Assembly (NCBI GenBank): GCA_963841435.1
Contig: CAWJCS010000002.1
Location: 544,001-608,000 of the forward strand
From: an uncultured delta proteobacterium
GTDB lineage: Bacteria; Myxococcota_A; Polyangia; Polyangiales; Polyangiaceae
Direction of reading: 5' to 3'
DNA length: 64,000 nt
Part shown: in pieces, positions 1 to 13,377 of the stretch
Position numbering within the stretch: position 1 is the stretch's first letter
Layout of the letters: every line of letters begins with the position of its first letter
The notes under the pieces: model-generated
What the model was told of the DNA's origin: nothing
The model's input: only the letters and a program-made list of their open reading frames with translations
The model's database searches: none
Translations under genes and position numbers: made by a program

Positions 1-623
1 GCGATCTTGTCGCCAACAAGGAGCCGCTCGGAGGCGTCCAAGCCCGAAGCGACGCGCTCGAATTCGACGTATCGCAGGAAATTCCGTGGGGCGAACGCGC
101 AGACCGCCTCGGTCTGAAAGCTCTCGAGAGGGGAGACGTCCTTGCGGCGGGCGACGGACCTCTCGCGCTCCCAGCCGTGCCACCCAAGCTGTCTCGCTCG
201 CTCGAGGTCGCCTTCCTTGAATTCAACTGACACCGAGAACCATGTCGGCGCGTGCATCAGCGGATCGACCGCGACGAACAGGTCCATCTCTTGGTGAACG
301 CCGAAGAAAAGCGTCGTCACCTTACGGGTGGGATCGACGTAGATGTCGTGGTAGCGGCTGAAGTCGCTGCCGTACTTGATCTGGAAACGGTGCTCGTCCT
401 TGGGTTAACCCTTGCCGTCGTTCTTGCGCCCGTACTCGTTCGCGGTGAACGCGTAGCAGATGATGGAGCGGCGCTCTCCGCTCGGTAGCTCGATCAGGTA
501 CTCGTACGGAGCCACCGTGGGGTTAGGGGATCGGAGCACGCGCGCTCCGCAGGTCACCAAGGCGGCCGTGATGCGCGCGACGTTCTGATGACCGTCCACC
601 CCGGAGTAGCGCTCGACCCGCAT
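1..623 (-). pseudogene. Putative restriction-endonuclease-like, methylase-associated protein; interrupted by an in-frame TAA at 405-407 and running off the window edge
   Basis: ORF 405..623 continues in the same frame past the TAA (PKDEHRFQIKYGSDFSRYHDIYVDP...WFSVSVEFKEGDL...GWHGWERER) with no further stop to position 1. It is divergent from a C5 MTase. Resemblance to the methylase-associated X1 (MTaX1) family is from memory, not a search. Confidence 0.55.
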
Positions 624-756
624 CCTTCCAGACTAAACCACAGGCTCGCCGGCCAAGCACCGAGCCCGTGGGGCTCCGCTCCGGTGTGACATTCAAAGAC
701 CCGGGAGCGGAATGCCGGCGACGTAGCCGAGCACCTCTGCTATACGCATGATCAGC

Positions 757-2000
757 ATGTCGAAGCCGCGGGTCATCAGCCTCTTCTCCGGCGCTGGCGG
801 GCTCGATTATGGCTTCGAAGCTGCGGGATTTGATACGGCCGTAGCTTTGGAGCTCGACCACGACGCCTGCGAAACCCTGAGAACCAATCGCCGTTGGGAG
901 GTCATCGAGCGGAGCATCTTCGAGGTGCCGACCGCAGAGGCCTCCTTGAGCGCGGGGGGCTGAAGAAGCGTGAGGCAAACGTCCTCATCGGCGGCCCGCC
1001 CTGCCAGCCGTTCTCGAAGGCGGGGTACTGGTCGAAGGGCGATTCGCTGAGGCTCGATGATCCGCGCGCGAGCACGCTGAGCGCGTACATGCGCGTCGTT
1101 GAGGAAGCGCTGCCGCAGGTGTTCCTGCTCGAGAACGTCGAGGGTCTTGCTTACGCAGGTAAGGATGAGGGGCTTCACCTGCTGCTCGAGTGCGTGAAGG
1201 ACATCAACGCGCGCACGCGGAGCAACTACAAGCCAGTGTTCAAGATTCTCCGCGCGGTCAACTACGGCGTCCCGCAGCAGCGCGAGCGCGTGATCATGAT
1301 CGCCTCTCGTGACGGGGAGCAGTTCAGCCACCCGACGCCGACGCACTGCGATCCGGACGCGCCAGCCCCTCTCCTCGCCAAAGTCAACCAACCGTTCTAC
1401 CGAACCGCCTGGGACGCGATCGCAGATGTGAAGCCGGATACGGACGAAGAGCTGGAGATGCGCGGGAAGTGGGCGGGCCTGTTGCCTTCAGTCCCCGAAG
1501 GTCAGAACTACCTTTGGCACACCGATCGAGGCGGAGGGCGACCGCTCTTCGGCTGGCGACGACGCTACTGGAGCTTCCTGCTCAAGCTTGCGAAGAATCG
1601 CCCGTCGTGGACGATCCAGGCACAGCCGGGTCCGGCAATCGGCCCATTCCATTGGGAGAATCGCCGCCTCAGCACGCGTGAGCTGTGTCGCCTGCAGACG
1701 TTTCCTGACGACGTGAACATCTGCGGCGGACGGACCTCGATTCAGCGCCAGCTCGGCAATGCCGTTCCGTCGCTCTTGGGCGAGGTTGTCGCGCGTGAGA
1801 TCGCTGTGCAGCTGCTCGGAAAGCGTCGCAACCGGACGCCTCCTCGTCTGCTTCCGCCGGATCGCTCCCCTGCTCCGCCTCCCGAACGGGTACGCGCTGT
1901 ACCCCGGGAGTTCATGGAGCTGGCGGGCGAGCACACGGCGCACCCAGGGACGGGGCTGGGCAACGCAGCGGTGCTTCGGCTCAGCGACTCTTGGGCCTGA
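757..2000 (+). CDS. DNA (cytosine-5) methyltransferase, Dcm-like, split by a frameshift near 935-945
   Basis: Motif I (LFSGAGGL) lies in ORF 748..963. Motifs IV (GGPPCQPFS), VI (LLENV), VIII (QQRERV), IX (RELCRLQTFPD) and X (QLGNAVP) lie in ORF 894..2000. Confidence 0.93.
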
Positions 2001-2655
2001 TCCGTTTCGCGCACAGCGGCTCGAGAACGCAGCGCTCGCACCGTGGGTGCACGCCGCACGTCTTTCGGCCGTGAGCGACCATGGTGACGTGCAACGAGTA
2101 GCGGAGACTCGGGTCAATCTTGCCCTCGAGCTCGGCGCTGCGACGCTCGTCCGGATGCTTCCCACCGGCCACCCATCCTAGCCGCTCGGAGACGCGCCAC
2201 ACGTGCGTGTCCACGGGCAGCACGTAGCGACCGAGCGAATACATCAGGACGCAGCGCGCAGTCTTGGGACCGACGCCGGGCAGAGACACGAGGTAGCTCA
2301 TGGCGTCCTCGTTCGACCAGGTGTGCAGAAAGCGCAGCGAGGTCGTTCCGCGATCCGCATGGATCTTCTTTAACAGAGCCTGAAGGAGCGCCACCTTCCG
2401 CTTCGCAAAGCCACCGAACCGGATCAGAGTCTCGACCTCTCCGCCCGGGGCTCGCCTGACCCGGTCCCAGCTTCGATACGTCTTCCAAAGCGCCGAGAAA
2501 GTACGCCGATACTCAGCCTCTCGCGTCTGTGTGGAAAGGACGATGAAGACAAGCTCAGCAAGCGGATCACGCTTGTTATGGAGCCGTGGACGGCCGTACG
2601 TCGAGCGGAGCACCTGCTCGATATCGTTGGGGCTGGGAAGGAGGTCCGCGGCCAA
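1981..2655 (-). CDS. Endonuclease III-like HhH-GPD DNA glycosylase with a C-terminal 4Fe-4S motif
   Basis: LSTQT, HhH motif LPGVGPKTA, PVDTHVWRV and C-x5-C-x2-C-x5-C; converges on and overlaps the MTase 3' end by 20 bp. Confidence 0.88.
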   Translation of the reverse strand: MAADLLPSPNDIEQVLRSTYGRPRLHNKRDPLAELVFIVLSTQTREAEYRRTFSALWKTYRSWDRVRRAPGGEVETLIRFGGFAKRKVALLQALLKKIHADRGTTSLRFLHTWSNEDAMSYLVSLPGVGPKTARCVLMYSLGRYVLPVDTHVWRVSERLGWVAGGKHPDERRSAELEGKIDPSLRYSLHVTMVAHGRKTCGVHPRCERCVLEPLCAKRIRPKSR

Positions 2656-2735
2656 CAGGCACGAGATCTAGCTGCCCCAGCGCGCCCGGTCACGCCACCT
2701 TGCGCCCGACCGAGAACCGGTGGAAGGCTCGACGG

Positions 2736-3011
2736 ATGAGCGCCGAGCTGCCCCGCGCCCCGCTCCTCGAGGCGCCCATCATCCAGTACCTCGCATCCAA
2801 GCCCGGCCCGCAGGAGATCGCGGAGATCGACACCGCCGTCGCGCGAGAGCTTGCGCTGACGCCCGAGCAACTAGCACTGCCGCACAACCCCGCAAAGGCG
2901 GGCGGGCGCAGCGAGTTTGCCTACCGAATGGCGTGGGCTCGGACCCGCCTGAAGGCGAAAGGCGCCATCGAGAATACGGGCCTCGGCAAATGGGCGCTGG
3001 TAAAAAAATAG
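2736..3011 (+). CDS. Stand-alone Mrr N-terminal (winged-helix) domain protein, 91 aa
   Basis: P...PIIQYL...EI...VA..L.LTPEQL...SEFAYRMAWARTRLKAKGAIENTGLGKW matches the Mrr_N pattern; no nuclease domain follows. Confidence 0.75.
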   Translation: MSAELPRAPLLEAPIIQYLASKPGPQEIAEIDTAVARELALTPEQLALPHNPAKAGGRSEFAYRMAWARTRLKAKGAIENTGLGKWALVKK

Positions 3012-3024
3012 GCCACCGTCTGCG

Positions 3025-5412
3025 CTAGCCGTCCTCTGCGTCAAGCTCCGCATCAAACATCGTCGCGATCTGCATGCGCCCGATCGCAATGATGGCGTGT
3101 CGCATCCAGATGTCCGACGGCTTCTCCTCGGGCGCGACCTTTCCCTTTGCGTCATTCAGCAAGAACATCCCGTACGACACTGCGCCGGCGTAGCGATCCT
3201 TCAGCGACTCCACCGCGTCTTTGGATCCGGACGCGCTGTCGGCGCGCCGTGTGATGGCCTTGCGCAGATCGGGGAAGCTCTCGTTGAGACGGAATACCAA
3301 CGATTCCGCGGAGTCCGTCACGTCTCCCGCTTCCTCGCCCGTCCATTCTGGCGGCCACATGCGCTTCAGCTCCTCGCGCTCCTCGTCGTTCGCTGCGTCG
3401 CGCTCGTGCCTGACCCACGTGATGTCGGGCACCCCGCTGTCGGCCGGAGGGACTGTATCCGGGCAGCTCGAGGGCTGAACTACTTGAATCGTAGCCGTGG
3501 CCACGAGTTCCCCCGCAGCAGCGTTGAGCAACCGAACGCGGACCGTGTACTCACCAGGCTTCGCTTCCTCGGAGGAGCCAAACACCAGCCGCGCGCGACC
3601 ACCTCGCACCGAGCCGGTCCCCTTGTGTCGCAGTCCGCCTGGATCGGGCCCGGCAATCTCCACGACGAGATCTCCGCTCGACTCGTCCAGATAGCCGTTC
3701 TTCGCGTCGATCGCGAGCACCAGATGCCCACCACGCCCTGCTCCGATCTCGTGGCGGGAGTTGATGATCTCGATCTTCGTGGGCACGGCTGGGAATGCGG
3801 AATCATCCATCTCTGGAGGCTTCACGCGCCCCCGAGGCTTGGTGATTGGCGGTCGATCCGCCCGACGACCGGGGCGAGCGCCACCGTCGGTCGCTCCAGC
3901 CAAGTTTCGCCCCATCCCTGCGAGATGGCGCCTGATAAGCGTTGCCACCTTCTTCCGCACGCTATCTTTCACCTTTGCCGAAGCTCGCGCTAGCTCCGCG
4001 TTCTTCGCTTCCTCTTCGAGCGCACGAAAATCCTCGCCCTCGAGGTATTCGGCCAGCGCATTGAAAATGGCATCGCTGACCTCGTTGTCTCGCTGCTGCT
4101 CGCGACCGGACGGGAACAGGTGCCGCTTCGCTTCAGCGGTGAGCTCATCAGCTGCAACTTGAACCACCATCCGCTTGGCTAGAAAGCCGAGCCGACACTC
4201 CTTGAGGAAGTCGCGCCCCCGCTGTCCGTGGCGTTGCCCGGACAACGTCAGAGTGATCGTGTGCTCAGCGCGAACGTAGCTCTCCGCGTTCGCCACTCCG
4301 CCAAGGACCCATGCGCGCACGCGGATCCGGCCCAGCGATTCGCCGGCATCCAACACATCGAGCATCAGCTCGTCCGAGAAGCGGAGGAACGGCCGCTCCG
4401 AGCCAGGATCCTCCACGTCGTCTCCAGCGCGCAAGCGTGGCTTCGTGGGCAGCCCGTCGAGCACCGCGGCGTTGCCCTTGATGATGCGGCCAGTGGACGC
4501 AGCCTTTGCATCCCCGTGCAGGTCCTTCTTCCTGTCGCCCGTGATGTGAATCGGAAGTGGCGGATCGTAGAGCGCCGAGTTCAGGAGAGCCCACAGACCG
4601 GTCTTCTGCTGGCGATACGCGGCAGAGTACCGATGGAGGTCGTAGCGGACGTGTGTGATCCGGGTGCCGTGGGCAAGCTCGAACGCACCAGCTACCTCGC
4701 GCGGCCGTGCACACAAGATCGCATGCTTGGGTCCGCATAGGTACTCGTATGTGCCGCCCTTGATCTTGCTCGGCGTGTAGCGCACCACGGTGAAGCCAAC
4801 GAGGTCGTCTTCACCATCGAGCAGCTGCTTGGCACGCCGCGAGGCGATGATGGTGTACTCGCTATGCATCAGGGTCGTCGCGCCGCCATGGCCATACTTT
4901 CCGATGAGGTACGGCTTCTCCCGCTTCTCGCTTTGGTGCAGGCTCAGCAGCGAGGTCGAGAACGCGCTCGGGTGCTGCCCCATCCCGTGGTCCTCAACCA
5001 AGATGGTGGGTCGATCAGGATCTCCGCTGTCCGTGAGGTGCACGTGCACGGCCCCCTCAGCGATGGAGCGGACCTTCTTATCGTCCTTCATTGCGGTGAC
5101 GCCCCGCGGCGGCAGGCCAAACCAGCGCGCACCGGCCTCCGCCGGCGTCCCAGGCCGATCCCTGGCGTGCAAGCGCGCCTCCAGCTCGAAGCACGCCTCG
5201 ATCCCGTTCACCACCCGCTCGATGAGCTGCGTTGGCGCGTCCTTACCTAGCTCGATGGGGCCGTCGTTCGAAGGATTGCCGCCGACCGGGCACCACGTGA
5301 AGTCCAGCTCTCCCTGGATCTCCTTGATCACCTCCCGCGTTGCGTCGTTCGTGGTGACGCTCAGCAGGCGAGCTGCGAGAGCCTTACCAAGTGGATGCAG
5401 GCGATCGGTCAT
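3025..5412 (-). CDS. GHKL (MORC/TopoVIB/Hsp90-like) ATPase, 795 aa
   Basis: Bergerat-fold motifs ERVVNGIEA, VEDHGMGQ, GKYGHGG and HGTRI; SD-like AAGGGGGA before the ATG. Confidence 0.8.
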   Translation of the reverse strand: MTDRLHPLGKALAARLLSVTTNDATREVIKEIQGELDFTWCPVGGNPSNDGPIELGKDAPTQLIERVVNGIEACFELEARLHARDRPGTPAEAGARWFGLPPRGVTAMKDDKKVRSIAEGAVHVHLTDSGDPDRPTILVEDHGMGQHPSAFSTSLLSLHQSEKREKPYLIGKYGHGGATTLMHSEYTIIASRRAKQLLDGEDDLVGFTVVRYTPSKIKGGTYEYLCGPKHAILCARPREVAGAFELAHGTRITHVRYDLHRYSAAYRQQKTGLWALLNSALYDPPLPIHITGDRKKDLHGDAKAASTGRIIKGNAAVLDGLPTKPRLRAGDDVEDPGSERPFLRFSDELMLDVLDAGESLGRIRVRAWVLGGVANAESYVRAEHTITLTLSGQRHGQRGRDFLKECRLGFLAKRMVVQVAADELTAEAKRHLFPSGREQQRDNEVSDAIFNALAEYLEGEDFRALEEEAKNAELARASAKVKDSVRKKVATLIRRHLAGMGRNLAGATDGGARPGRRADRPPITKPRGRVKPPEMDDSAFPAVPTKIEIINSRHEIGAGRGGHLVLAIDAKNGYLDESSGDLVVEIAGPDPGGLRHKGTGSVRGGRARLVFGSSEEAKPGEYTVRVRLLNAAAGELVATATIQVVQPSSCPDTVPPADSGVPDITWVRHERDAANDEEREELKRMWPPEWTGEEAGDVTDSAESLVFRLNESFPDLRKAITRRADSASGSKDAVESLKDRYAGAVSYGMFLLNDAKGKVAPEEKPSDIWMRHAIIAIGRMQIATMFDAELDAEDG

Positions 5413-5563
5413 CAGTTCCCCCTTCAGTGCAACAGGCGCAGGGTAGGCCAGCCACGAATTCTAGGGTGGACGCTCTGTGCGCCGCAAGAGGTGAGCCAGC
5501 CGCGTGCATGCGCTGCGCGGTCGAGTAATCGACACCGACGCCCAGGGAGCTAAACTTGTGACC

Positions 5564-5803
5564 ATGCGTTCCGTCGAAGCTATCGCCGTGGAGGCTCTGT
5601 CGCTGCCCGCCGACGACCGGGCCGCTCTCGTCTTGCGCCTTGCTGAGAGCCTCGACGAACAGCACGATTGCGACGGCGAGGATGCCTGGGCTGCTGAAGT
5701 GGCGGGACGCATCGAGACGATCACGGCGGGAACTGCCGAGACGATCACGATTGCCCAGGCGCTCGCCGGAGCTCGCGCCCGATTGTCGACGCGTCGTGGC
5801 TGA
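5564..5803 (+). CDS. Addiction-module antitoxin-like protein (TIGR02574 type)
   Basis: EALSLPADDRAALV..L.ESLD...AWAAEV..RI...AG is the family pattern; 79 aa. Confidence 0.8.
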   Translation: MRSVEAIAVEALSLPADDRAALVLRLAESLDEQHDCDGEDAWAAEVAGRIETITAGTAETITIAQALAGARARLSTRRG

Positions 5804-5989
5804 GATTCTCCGACCCCGCCCGCCTCCTCCTCTCCCCCAACCCCATCCGAATCAACCAATCCTTCCGCCCGACCAGCGCCCGCGCCGTCCCCGGCGATAC
5901 AGCGCGACCAGCTCCGCTTCAGGCTCGCACCGTGAGTCACCCCTCGCACCGTGCGTCGCGCGCATCACGCTCCGGTGACGCCGCCGGCA

Positions 5990-6480
5990 CCGGCGCCGCC
6001 GGGCGGGACCGCAGACAGCTCGAGCGTCTCTGTCGCTACGTCACCCGCCCGCCGGTCGCCCAAGACCGGCTCGAGCGGCTCGCCGACGGCAAGCTCGAGC
6101 TTCCGACTCAAGCACCCGTGGAAGGACGGCACGTGCGCGATCCTGCTCGAGCCCGATGACCTGTTGGTCCGGCTGGTCGCCGCGGTGCCCCACCGTACTT
6201 CCACTTGGTCAGGTACTTCGCCGTGCTCTCGAGCCACTCGCGACTGCGAAAAGAAGTCGTGCCACACCCGCCCGCTGATCCGAGCGCGGATGTTCCGCCG
6301 CCGGCGCCGGGCGACCAGCTCGAGCTCGACCTCGACGCCGACGGTGACGCGCCGGCTCCGAGAAAAAGATGGGCGTGGTTGCTGACACATGTGTTCGCTG
6401 CCGACCTTGATACGTGCCCCCCGACGAAGACGTCGGCTCCCCCGACGCGCGGGGTAGCTGCAACCGGTCGCGCCCGCTAG
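5990..6480 (+). mobile_element. IS91/ISCR-family rolling-circle transposase remnant (C-terminal part, frameshifted)
   Basis: Fragments across three frames: DRRQLERLCRYVTRPPVAQDRL / RLKHPWKDGT.AILLEPDDLLVRLVAAVP / HLVRYFAVLSSHSRLRKEVVP...RWAWLLTHVFAADLDTCP. Confidence 0.85.
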
Positions 6481-6753: not shown

Positions 6754-9261
6754 TTACGGCTGATAGGGGCGTGGCGCCACCGCGGGCGTCGTGCCCTCGA
6801 CCCAGGCGGGGCTGCCCTGGGAGGTGATGGTCACGCTGGAGCTGGTCAAGCCCGGGCGACGTGGCCTCGATGACCGAGGTGCCGGAGTAGTAGGTGCGGA
6901 ATTCAATCGCGGCCTGGCCGTCGCGGATCGCGATGTCGGACGCCGAGCCGCTGCCGGGCGGCGTGAACGTGATGCTCGGCCCGGTCGGGAACTCGCCGGG
7001 GCCGGACTTGATCGTGAGCGTCACGGTGGCGGTGTTGCTGATCGGCTTGCCGTCCGAGTCCACGACGGTGACCAGGAGCCATGCGTCCTGCGTGCCGTCC
7101 ACCGCGGACAGCGTCGTCGTGCTCGACGTCAGATTCAGGCCCGCGGCCGTGCCCGCGGTCGGCCAGGTCGGCGGCGGGACGTTCGCGTAGGCGTTTCGAT
7201 ACCAGTAGTACGACTCGCTTCGGGATGCGGAAGTAGTCGACGATGCCCGAGTTGATGTACTGCGTGCCCATCTGGCTGCCGTAGTCGAACATGCACCACC
7301 GGGAGATTCCGCTGCGCCACGCGGGTTGGGCGGCCATGCCGTTCGACACCGTCAGGTTGCCCCAGCCCGGATCGTAGTTGCCCGGGCGAGTCGAGCTCAC
7401 GTCGGCGCCGTATTCGGACACCATGTTGGGTATGCCAGGGTCGTCGTAGCCCACGCCGTCGCCGTTGTAGCCGGCCACGTCGCCCAGCGTGCCAGGCTCG
7501 GTGCCGCCGATCTTGGACTGCGCGCCGCCGATGGCGGCCGGCCGTCCCGTGGGCGCGGGATCGAGCTGGTGGGTCAAGGCGACCGCCTTCTTGAGCAGCG
7601 CGATCACCCTGTCCGCCGGACCGCCGCCGTTGAAGAAGTCCTCGTTTCCCATGCTCCACACGATGATGCTCGGGTGATTGCGATGGATGCGGATCATCTC
7701 CGTGAGGCTCGCGAGAACGTTGGCGTCGTACTCGTCGAAGTCGGCGGACGTGCTCGGGTAGGCGCCGCTGTAGGACCAGCCGCCCGGGCCGCCGCCGAAG
7801 CCGCCCCAGAAGCAGTTTTCCGACCAGAACAGGATGCCGAGCTCGTCGCACGCGTCGGCGAAGGCCGGGCGCCTTCGGATAGTGCGAGCCGCGGATGAAG
7901 TTCATGCCCGCGTCCTTGACCATCTTGACGTCGCGGTAGAGCGCCGAGTCGCTCACGCCGATGCCCCAGCCGGCATGGTCCTGATGGACGTTGCCCCCTT
8001 GAATCCAATAGTGCGCGCCGTTCAGGGAGAATCCTTGTGTACGCCGACCAGCTGAACCAGCGAAACCCGAACGTGCGTCGTGAAGTCGTCGACGATCCCC
8101 ATGTCGTCGGACAGGTACGACAGCGCCCTGTACAGCGTGGGATGGTCGGGGTGCCAGAGCGACGGGCTGCTGATCGCTGGCGTGGTTTGGTCGAAGGTCA
8201 CCGTCTTGCCCGCGTCGATCTGTCTGCTGAGACGAGACGGTGGCGACCACCTTGCCGTCCTTGTCGACGATGTCGGTCTTCAGCGTGGCGTTGACGGCGG
8301 CGGCGCGGTCATGTTCTGCACCTCCGTCTTGATCTCCACGGTGCTGGACGAGCCCGAATTGGTCGCGAGCGTGGGCGTCGTGACCCACGTGCCGTACCAG
8401 GCGACGTGAAGCGGATCGGTAACGACGACGTTCACGTCGCGATAAAGACCGCCCTGGAACGTGTGGTCGCCGGTGATCGGCGGGAGCTGCGCGTTCCAGT
8501 TGTTGTTCAGGCGAACGGCCACGACGTTGTCACCGGTCTGGATGGCGGCGCTGATCGTCGATGGAGAAGCCGTTGTAGCCGCCGATGTGCTCTCCGACCT
8601 GCTTGCCGTTGACGTAGATCTGCGCCTGGTCGAACGCCGCCTGAAACTCGAGAAACACGCTCTTTTCCGCCCAGTTCGCCGGCACGGTGAAGTGCTTTCG
8701 GTACCAGCCGTACCCGACGTAGAACTTCGCGTTGATGAAGTACGGCAGATTGAACGAGTGCGGCAGGCCTATATCGTTCCACGAGGCATCGTCGAAATCG
8801 GTCGCGTCCGCGCCCGTCACGTCGCTACGTTTGAACTTCCACGATTGGTTGAAGTTCTGAATCTCGCGGGCGCCGGTGGGCTCTGCACCGCCAGTCCCCC
8901 CCGAAGCAGCGGCGCCCGCCTGTCCTCCCTCAGCGGCAGCGCCAGCCGCGCCACCGCTCCCTGAGAGCCCGCCCGCGGCCGCGCCGCTATTGCCGCCCGC
9001 GGCCGCGCCGCCGTTGCCGCCGCCGGCCGTGCCTCCGGAGGCGGAGACCCCGCCGCTGGCCTGGTTTCCCCCTGTGGACTGCATGCCACCGGCCGAACCA
9101 CCGGTGGCGGCGTTCGAGCCTCCGTTTCCCTGGGATTGGCCGCCGCTGCCGCCGGCAACGCCGCCATTGCCACCTGACGCTCCGTTTTGATGGCTGTCTC
9201 GCTTGGACCCACTGCAAGCAAGCAACGCCATTGCGATCATGAGGGGCAGTGCGCGATGCAT
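6754..9261 (-). CDS. Glycoside hydrolase family 2 (beta-galactosidase-like) lipoprotein, multiply frameshifted
   Basis: Lipobox LLAC and Gly-rich linker, then NFNQSWKF, GWYRKHF, YVNGKQVGEHIGGY, GGLYRDV, NVHQDHAGWG, GMNFIRGSHYP, RNHPSIIVWSMGNE and VSEYG spread over several ORFs. Confidence 0.85.
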
Positions 9262-9705
9262 CGGATTTCCCATCTCGTGTCGAGTCGAGCCCCTGGCGAC
9301 TACCGCAGGTCGAACACTTCGTCGGTCTCTTGGAACAACGTCGCGCCGCTCTTCTGGGCTGTCAGGACGAGGTAGCCGCCCCCCGGGACCTGGATCGGGG
9401 GCCTGGATCGCGGTCTCGACGAGCGAGTGCGGGATGGAGCGGCGCATGCCCCAGCAGAAACCCGCCAGCGCGGTCGGACGGGTCACTTTTCTCGGTGGGT
9501 GACCTGCAATCACGGGGCTGTGAACCCGGGATCTCGTGCGCGTAACATAGTGGAATAATGAAAGAAATCGTGGCCGCTTCTCGTTCGGTCGGTTGCGACG
9601 CGAGGGCGGTCGAGCGGCAGCTCGAGGCGGCGTTCACGCCGGCGGTGCATCGAAATCCCCGAGCCGTCGGTGGGACATGAGGGGTGTTGGTAGGAGACGG
9701 AAATC

Positions 9706-12840: not shown

Positions 12841-13099
12841 GCGGAGAGGGAGAGATGACCTGCGGTGCTCGGCCGCTTCGCGGCCTGCGCTCCTCGGGAC
12901 CTTCGTGCGGAAGCGTGCGCTGTCCGCAGCTCGGTGCGCGGCGCGGTCCGTCGATGGGCCGACGGTGCGAACCCTCCACAACGCAGCCCAACGTGCGACG
13001 TGGCCCGTCAGCGGGCCAAGACGGTTCGAATCCCTCCTGGCGGGGTTCGGCGCTTGGAGGCGGAGCGCGGCGGGGTGCGGATTTGTTGCGGAGAGGGAG
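12841..13099. repeat. tRNA 3'-end direct repeat plus an inverted T-arm copy (att-like mini-element)
   Basis: GCGGAGAGGGAG occurs at 12841-12852 and 13088-13099. GGTTCGAATCCCTCC at 13023-13037 is the exact reverse complement of 13096-13110. Confidence 0.65.
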
Positions 13100-13175
13100 G
13101 GATTCGAACCCTCGGTACGGTTGCCCGTACACATGATTTCCAATCATGCACCTTCGGCCACTCGGTCACCTCTCC
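13089..13175 (-). tRNA. tRNA-Ser(GGA)
   Basis: GGAGAGG acceptor stem, anticodon arm CATGA-TTGGAAA-TCATG, long variable arm and GGTTCGAATCC; CCA not encoded. Confidence 0.97.
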
Positions 13176-13290
13176 TGGGGCCGGTCGGCCTCGCGGGGAT
13201 GCGGGGCCGGCCTTCGAACTAACGGGAGGAGCTCGCCTCCTCCCACGCGACGGCGCAGGCGTGCACGCACGCGTCCGCAACCACGCGCGG

Positions 13291-13377
13291 CGGAGAGAGT
13301 GGGATTCGAACCCACGGTACCCTTACGAGTACACCTGATTTCGAATCAGGCACCTTCGGCCACTCGGTCATCTCTCC
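13291..13377 (-). tRNA. tRNA-Ser(CGA)
   Basis: GGAGAGA acceptor stem, anticodon arm CCTGA-TTCGAAA-TCAGG, long variable arm and GGTTCGAATCC. Confidence 0.97.

Follow-up and report, generated by a model that had tools for sequence, protein, structure and literature searches.

What do six closely packed genes, for a putative nuclease, a C5 DNA methyltransferase (MTase), an endonuclease III (EndoIII)-like glycosylase, a solo Mrr_N protein, a GHKL-type ATPase, and an antitoxin, have to do with one another, and can they work as a defense system? The question is raised by the left end of the stretch of DNA analyzed here (the window; G000:C2:544001-608000, 64,000 nucleotides [nt] in length), part of the 7.78-Mb genome (roughly 68% G+C) of an uncultured delta proteobacterium. 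The initial annotation had proposed an undescribed, extended restriction-modification (R-M)-type module comprising all six genes. Our results favor a narrower answer: the segment from about position −513 to 5412 is, on balance, best explained as a horizontally acquired, partly decayed R-M island consisting of two modules that recur elsewhere, and we put the chance that this explanation holds as a whole at slightly better than even.

Comparison of gene neighborhoods indicated that the nuclease, MTase, glycosylase, and ATPase genes recur in parts in other genomes, while the antitoxin and Mrr_N genes do not. Three sets of loci are informative. First, in G228, a genome of the same phylum but another family, the ATPase gene and a 78-amino-acid (aa) open reading frame (ORF) are accompanied by a convergent C5 MTase gene and a divergent gene for a nuclease with an MTaX1 domain, in an order that mirrors the window; identities to the window proteins are 30% (ATPase), 60% (C5 MTase), and 50% (nuclease), and there is a gap of 236 nt within the locus. 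Second, a one-strand operon of G198 encodes the MTase (58 to 66% identical), the glycosylase (45%), and the MTaX1-nuclease (47%), in that order, and in G086 and G021 a glycosylase homologue has a more distant C5 MTase as its immediate neighbor. Third, metagenome contigs L003 and L004, which carry the same sequence, have a C5 MTase gene divergent from an operon for a coiled-coil HARE-HTH protein and the ATPase, with the HARE-HTH stop codon abutting the ATPase start; this MTase is of the same subtype (51% identity over 114 aa to the G228 enzyme). The R-M-type reading therefore survives to the extent that G228, G198, and L003/L004 show recurrence in parts rather than random accretion, but the antitoxin and Mrr_N genes fall outside the module and the genes for the restriction enzyme (R) and methylase (M) are dead.

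Several features of these related loci deserve mention in their own right. The 78-aa ORF of G228 (L014 11990-12226) is without a family match and begins 3 nt after the ATPase stop codon. A 172-aa ORF upstream of the G228 ATPase gene had no Pfam match, gave only chance-level BLASTP scores to the small partner proteins, and was judged spurious from its composition. Genes for GmrSD and REase-ARP follow the nuclease gene of G228 (L014 15573-18247), which places the locus in a defense island. Just upstream of the G198 operon, three further methylase genes, two of the N6_N4 type and one for a D12-class adenine methylase, form a methylase-rich island (L028 2358-7505).

Relatives of the ATPase are also found beside other DNA modification genes. 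A HARE-HTH gene precedes the ATPase gene in the short contig L002. In metagenome contig L005 and genome G368, the preceding gene encodes a common 336-aa protein, and the ATPase gene is convergent with an N6_N4 MTase gene, the gene ends overlapping. Five ATPase relatives on plasmids are 23 to 26% identical, and four of them lie beside SspB/SspD or DndB-like genes: that of Ensifer beside SspD, that of Devosia beside SspB and a cysteine-desulfurase-type gene, that of Hymenobacter beside an SspD-like gene, DUF262, and SIR2, and that of Rhodococcus immediately following a DndB-like gene. (Searching the plasmids again with query P0020 yielded three of these plasmids once more.) A DNA modification gene was present in the flanks in 9 of 11 ATPase contexts, the window included, one of the other two being on a contig too short to tell and the other, in Pontibacillus, having none. 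A conserved neighborhood with a DNA methylase and a nuclease is expected of a MORC or paraMORC protein, and the family shows it, with a DNA modification gene in these nine contexts and with the C5 MTase and MTaX1-nuclease genes together in G228.

On the Ensifer (L006 2327-6702) and Devosia (L009 9446-13948) plasmids, the ATPase relative is accompanied, next to SspB/SspD, by a “sensor histidine kinase” of ∼780 aa and a hypothetical protein of ∼635 to 680 aa. The ∼780-aa proteins gave weak PADLOC REase_II matches, and the trio may be a recurring three-gene Ssp restriction partner without a PADLOC name. BLASTP comparison of the Devosia upstream protein with the 336-aa partner of L005 gave no similarity.

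Gene neighborhoods of this kind could also arise by island accretion, in which case the ATPase would be an independent, self-contained defense or DNA maintenance gene (as Tiamat was first described) and R, M, and the glycosylase would form a separate cassette. We regard this as unlikely, although by no means far-fetched, and several observations weigh in its favor and against a coupling of the two modules. The cassette stands alone in G198, and no ATPase family member was found at an E value of ≤1e-3 in G198, G086, or G021 (97, 95, and 97% complete, respectively), which implies that R-M works without the ATPase. Conversely, the Pontibacillus ATPase relative stands alone, with no modification gene nearby. 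The modification modules beside the ATPase are of four unrelated kinds, and the G228 and G198 loci are clearly defense islands, with GmrSD, REase-ARP, and further MTases near; as ATPase partners vary and defense genes cluster in islands, adjacency is weaker evidence than it looks. The Mrr_N gene, counted as part of the module by the initial annotation, recurs in none of the related loci, where relatives have a HARE-HTH or 336-aa protein. A count in one sample of 401 genomes of the phylum does speak for coupling: the ATPase family was present in 3 and MTaX1 in 12, and the 2 genomes with both have them within 3 kb of each other, compared with about 0.09 such genomes expected if the two were independent; but the numbers are small and the relatives are not independent. 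Against coupling, finally, the family alignment contains no invariant acidic or His residue in the C-terminal half of the ATPase, so that no built-in nuclease is seen in it. This last point cuts both ways, as it leaves the ATPase without a conserved nuclease motif that would let it act alone. Accretion is also difficult to reconcile with the finding of one C5 MTase subtype next to the ATPase family in three different gene orders (the window, G228, and L003/L004), with the short gap in G228 and the overlapping gene ends in L005 and G368, and with the divergence of the window and G228 ATPases, which are only 30% identical while the MTases are 60% identical and which therefore do not belong to one inherited island.

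We thus return to the two-module island, the state of which is evident from its nuclease gene. The “putative nuclease” of the initial annotation is borne out as to type, with an N-terminal MTaX1 domain and a C-terminal PD-(D/E)xK domain (Pfam detects MTaX1 only), but the gene exceeds the window and is interrupted. Its 381 codons (G000:C2:543488-544623) reach 513 nt to the left of base 1, with the first 207 codons inside the window. One-frame tblastn comparison with the intact 398-aa ORF of G228 gave 50% identity over 393 aa, from window position 632 to −513, across two in-frame TAA codons, the first at positions 405 to 407 and the second at −234 (left flank, L001 15405 and 14766). The first stands where each of 26 relatives has an Arg. 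For the G228 orthologue, an AlphaFold2 model based on 26 relatives reached a predicted local distance difference test (pLDDT) score of 89, and residues 233 to 377 of this predicted model form a PD-(D/E)xK domain that matches I-Ssp6803I (Z score, 13.8; root mean square deviation, 2.9; 129 residues aligned), Hjc (Z score, 10.0), and many restriction enzymes (Z scores of 5 to 8); Foldseek was also run. Residues D272 and E286-C287-K288 are invariant in all 26 relatives, and the window copy retains PDF...ECK despite its two stops. The family is common, with 990 proteins at an E value of ≤1e-3 among those scored. Judged from its sequence, the gene is a dead restriction endonuclease pseudogene in this genome.

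Both TAA stops share the context AAG[G/C]GTTAACC, 10 of 11 bases being equal, and in the genome as a whole there are only 106 copies of GTTAAC and 449 of TTAA. The site of the first stop is CGA in G228, and the stop would result if an earlier GTCGAC had undergone the CG-to-TA change on its two strands. The shared context could be a hot spot of 5-methylcytosine (5mC) deamination at the methylase target, or a coincidence. An MTase target of GTCGAC or GTYRAC, with the stops arising by deamination, was considered: the island contains no GTCGAC and two GTTAAC sites, the orthologous loci and the genome have no such skew, and the pattern was left unexplained.

The MTase gene is broken by one frameshift near positions 937 to 945, between motif I (FSGAGG, in the frame of 748) and motif IV (PPCQPFS, from which the sequence continues in the frame of 894), at a site without any base run longer than 2. 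Two-frame tblastn comparison with the G228 MTase aligned 351 aa at 60% identity in one frame and 66 aa at 55% in the other, and the PADLOC match is MTase_II/DruM. Due to the frameshift, the window copy lacks the complete set of catalytic motifs of a type II R-M methylase in one frame, while the G228 and G198 orthologues are intact. With two stops in R and a frameshift in M, the locus cannot work as it stands, and restriction is off.

That the locus is in fact intact and active, the TAA codons and the frameshift being assembly errors or read through, seems to us very improbable. The breaks are read from the assembly consensus, and a GH2-like gene nearby also changes frame, which could mean locally poor sequence. 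However, the genome has 2,385 clean ORFs of at least 300 aa and 130 of at least 1,000 aa, and the breaks therefore read as real mutations; the stops are substitutions rather than homopolymer indels, the first of them hits an otherwise invariant Arg, and an R-M system would be expected to die by joint damage to R and M.

The glycosylase gene, in contrast to R and M, is intact and overlaps the 3′ end of the MTase gene by 20 nt. The protein keeps the Fe-S Cys cluster, the Lys of GVGPKTA in the helix-hairpin-helix (HhH) motif, and the catalytic Asp of VDTH. NCBIfam matches were MonDNAglycDR2438 (2.8e-40) and nth (1e-23), both below the cutoff, and the nearest solved structures are Deinococcus EndoIII-1 (2e-33) and EndoIII-3. 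No match at an E value of ≤1e-25 was found in the 29 genomes of the host family, which indicates that the glycosylase is foreign and came with the island. Of the 12 best loci, 4 (those of the window, G198, G086, and G021) have its gene immediately next to a C5 MTase gene, and this constant position next to C5 methylases favors a Vsr-like role, directed at damage arising from 5mC. We infer that the glycosylase most likely removes T, or an oxidized pyrimidine derived from 5mC, opposite G. One point tells against the more specific form of this proposal: T:G specificity is only a guess, because the Lys of bifunctional EndoIII is kept and Deinococcus EndoIII-1/3 are much nearer relatives of the protein than Mig is.

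An offensive or regulatory role would be the converse, with the glycosylase excising bases, modified or not, of invading DNA in the way of known glycosylase-based defenses or, like plant ROS1/DME, 5mC itself, in a form of restriction by methylation plus base excision. Both catalytic residues of bifunctional glycosylase/lyases, Lys and Asp, are kept, ROS1 is among the PDB matches (7e-14), and there are weak PADLOC matches to an “OGG” defense model (7e-5) and to a REBASE-type nicking enzyme model (5e-6). This role nevertheless appears improbable, since an enzyme that excised 5mC next to its own methylase would attack host DNA and since the position beside the C5 MTase, and between M and R in G198, is that of Vsr in Dcm-type systems. 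A repair function for the glycosylase of the cassette is consequently retained here.

The GHKL assignment of the 795-aa ATPase found no match in Pfam, NCBIfam, or PADLOC and is upheld by motifs and fold. Residues E65, N69, D141xG143xG145, G171, and G176, which are invariant in the alignments, constitute the Bergerat motifs. The AlphaFold2 model has a pLDDT of only 67; its top Foldseek matches were topoisomerase VI-B, GyrB 43K, Hsp90, and MLH1 (1e-7 to 4e-5), with MutL also found, over 330 to 750 alignment columns, and VIA gave TRAP1/HtpG (Z score, 11.5), SMCHD1 (10.4), MutL (9.6), and MORC2 (9.2). In the predicted layout, the Bergerat ATPase and transducer (residues 1 to about 470) are followed by a coiled or disordered linker, an Ig-like domain (residues 541 to 648; VIA Z scores of 9 to 10), and a C-terminal α/β domain (residues 660 to 795) for which no structural match was listed by VIA. 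The model thus predicts that the protein folds as a GHL ATPase plus an Ig-like domain, with both the GHKL (Bergerat) motifs and the S5-type transducer of MORC and paraMORC proteins.

A word-indexed search found 13 relatives of the ATPase, and a profile of these detected 2,587 clusters (defined at 50% identity) at an E value of ≤1e-3 and 1,049 at ≤1e-30, the best 150 listed clusters being mostly full length (750 to 800 aa). Among 25 family representatives there was no PADLOC match at an E value of ≤1e-3, and Pfam HATPase_c_3 was reached by two relatives below threshold (19.7 and 22.9 bits against a cutoff of 25). The ESM Atlas contains look-alike unnamed clusters of 750 to 800 aa, in some of which 26 to 30% of members have HATPase_c_3. 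No match to the ATPase was found by tblastn in the phage collection, and a conserved-pattern search with the alignment gave 9 pattern matches in genome contigs and 57 in viral contigs, none of which was confirmed. The ATPase gene is split in two frames in metagenome contig L005 (1713-4006) and in G368 (L015 8553-11972), where the upstream gene for the 336-aa partner is also split. Together with the dead R and M in the window, these breaks indicate that members of the module are frequently damaged, perhaps because they carry a fitness cost.

We propose the following. (i) The first module would be a type II-like R-M cassette, in which the C5 methyltransferase M marks host DNA and R, the MTaX1 and PD-(D/E)xK fusion, would cut unmarked DNA, MTaX1 having been proposed in the literature to tell modified from unmodified DNA. 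The EndoIII-family glycosylase, in the place of Vsr, would limit the mutagenic cost of methylation. (ii) The second module would be a GHL ATPase of an unnamed family (ATPase, transducer, Ig-like, and C-terminal domains), most likely an ATP-driven dimeric clamp, which in relatives is encoded with a small DNA-binding partner (the HARE-HTH or 336-aa protein) by some DNA modification module. (iii) The ATPase and its winged helix-turn-helix (wHTH) partner would bind to unmodified DNA and either permit nuclease cleavage or extend it, in the manner proposed for MORC/paraMORC. We lean, by a small measure, towards this reading of the locus, in which a type II-like R-M cassette, provided with a glycosylase for Vsr-like repair, is decaying and is coupled to an ATPase module of (para)MORC-like type. 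More tentatively, the large unnamed ATPase family may be a widespread defense family that serves as an interchangeable “restriction engine” or sensor for C5 methylation, N4/N6 methylation, and Ssp/Dnd phosphorothioation, with a swap-in DNA reader (HARE-HTH, Mrr_N, or 336-aa protein).

The remaining two of the six genes fit less well. The Mrr_N domain itself is clear (Pfam, 43.7 bits against a cutoff of 29.5), the PADLOC mREase_IV match covers the N-terminal 76 positions only, and the Mrr catalytic domain to which Mrr_N is joined in Mrr type IV enzymes is absent from the ORF. The gene is convergent with the ATPase gene and its ORF ends at 3011, 14 nt before it. No Mrr_N homologue was found in related loci L017 to L030, BLASTP gave no similarity between Mrr_N and the HARE-HTH partners, and complex prediction for the ATPase with Mrr_N scored 0.03 against a mark of 0.32, a result that speaks neither for nor against; any part that the protein plays in the module would be conjectural. 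The antitoxin, likewise claimed as a component, has no toxin partner, and no such gene occurs in any related context. Downstream of it is only an IS91-type fragment, rather than the second gene of a type II toxin-antitoxin pair, and this fragment recurs in none of the related contexts. The antitoxin gene and the IS91 fragment are unrelated debris.

The setting of the locus is summarized in Table 1. Two descriptive claims of the initial annotation were confirmed by ORF listing with Pfam, NCBIfam, and PADLOC searches, namely, that the six genes are closely packed in strictly alternating orientation and that an IS91 remnant adjoins them; “tRNA-adjacent” was loose, as two tRNA-Ser genes are present but 7 kb away. 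The G+C content is 62 to 66% at the locus and 68 to 72% further right in the window. The glycosylase, Mrr_N, and ATPase genes are intact ORFs. The island ends on the right with the Y2_Tnp fragment, which matches about 40 of the 183 positions of the profile. The adjacent GH2-like gene encodes a secreted glycosidase with a Gly-rich N-terminal linker; the frame supported by G+C content at third codon positions (GC3) shifts at least four times, and this gene is a pseudogene too. Given its changing frame and the broken R and M genes, the whole ∼10 kb looks like a decaying insert.

Table 1. Positions of the genes of the locus and of neighboring features in the window
Feature	Position	Strand	Evidence
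MTaX1-domain gene, 5′ part	1-623	−	Pfam MTaX1, 9e-11
C5 MTase gene	748-2000	+	Pfam DNA_methylase, 5e-11 and 1e-37, two frames
HhH-GPD/EndoIII-family glycosylase gene	1981-2655	−	Pfam HhH-GPD, 4.7e-9
Solo Mrr_N gene (91 aa)	2736-3011 (from ATG at 2736; listed ORF from GTG at 2586)	+	Pfam Mrr_N, 3e-11
GHL-type ATPase gene (795 aa)	3025-5412	−	Bergerat motifs and fold; no library match
Antitoxin gene (Unstab_antitox/TIGR02574)	5504-5803	+	Pfam, 9e-10; NCBIfam, 3e-8
IS91/ISCR-type Y2_Tnp fragment	5932-6159	+	Pfam Y2_Tnp, 1.2e-5; NCBIfam ISCR, 1.7e-5
GH2-like glycosidase gene	6900-9520	−	
tRNA-Ser gene pair	13088-13377	−	Anticodons GGA and CGA; 114 nt between the genes

GHL ATPases (MORC, Tiamat, and Hsp90-like proteins) are emerging as immune proteins common to bacteria and eukaryotes, and a large unannotated family found by three chemically different DNA-marking systems would provide a handle on how an ATP-driven clamp is coupled to the sensing of modification. 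The R-M cassette, for its part, would offer a clean natural example in which the place of Vsr beside a cytosine methylase is taken by an EndoIII-type glycosylase. As the window copy is mostly a fossil, the intact loci of G228 and G198 are the better material for studying the ATPase family and the methylase-glycosylase-nuclease operon.

How does this locus compare with known systems? The combination of genes is without a name, as had been supposed: no PADLOC model names the set, and literature searches found no name for it, which is not proof of absence. “Undescribed,” however, was an overstatement. GHKL plus S5 ATPases in R-M operons with cytosine methylases, Vsr-type repair, and restriction endonuclease-fold nucleases were described computationally in 2008, to go by the available portion of that study (Iyer, Abhiman & Aravind 2008, PMC2292703), in which MORC and paraMORC1-5 are proposed to loop or clamp DNA between recognition and cleavage sites. 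The likeness to MORC/paraMORC, as far as that portion describes them, is considerable: an N-terminal GHKL ATPase followed by a middle domain of transducer type and by a C-terminal extension specific to the family; a position beside cytosine methylases, restriction endonuclease-fold nucleases, and a gene for repair of 5mC damage; and a patchy, laterally mobile distribution (3 of 401 genomes here). There are also differences from the operons described there. A superfamily 2 (SF2) helicase is the partner in about 70% of MORC operons (PMC2292703) and there is none here, an HhH-GPD glycosylase occurs in place of Vsr, and the ATPase family has an Ig-like domain, a small wHTH partner, and links to Ssp/Dnd phosphorothioation. 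HATPase_c_3 is not reached by the window ATPase and is a sub-threshold match in the two relatives noted above. The comparison with paraMORC1-5 was made by their description in the available text.

Recent additions to GHL-type defense include Tiamat and a GHKL-Shedu fusion, according to the accessible parts of the two reports (bioRxiv 10.64898/2026.09.30.754977, PMC12137116). Tiamat is described there as a GHL ATPase-nuclease defense protein often near methyltransferases and nucleases (bioRxiv 10.64898/2026.09.30.754977), and the window ATPase shares both the GHL ATPase and this neighborhood. Unlike Tiamat, which in that description has its own C-terminal PD-(D/E)xK domain (NOV_C/DUF3883) and DUF3684, the system studied here has its nuclease in a separate, MTaX1-fused protein, and neither DUF3684 nor NOV_C/DUF3883 was matched by Pfam or PADLOC in the window ATPase or its 25 relatives.

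The partners of Ssp and Dnd systems (SspE, SspFGH, DndFGH, and PbeABCD) invite a similar comparison, as four plasmids carry distant ATPase relatives (24 to 26% identical in the N-terminal half) next to genes for SspB/SspD or DndB-like proteins. These relatives match no PADLOC model (E value, ≤1e-4), however, and the window contains no phosphorothioation genes.

Mig is a T:G repair enzyme linked to the methylase M.MthTI (structure 1KEA). The cassette resembles both Dcm-Vsr and M.MthTI-Mig in having the gene for a repair enzyme beside that for a C5 methylase, and its glycosylase shares the HhH-GPD/Fe-S superfamily with Mig; it differs from Mig, to which it is only distantly similar (1e-5), in the features of EndoIII noted above. 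Vsr itself is recorded in an R-M operon context in the available part of the 2008 analysis (PMC2292703). Measured against that portion of the literature, this kind of system was predicted in 2008, and the ATPase family and the gene combinations represent a new variation within it.

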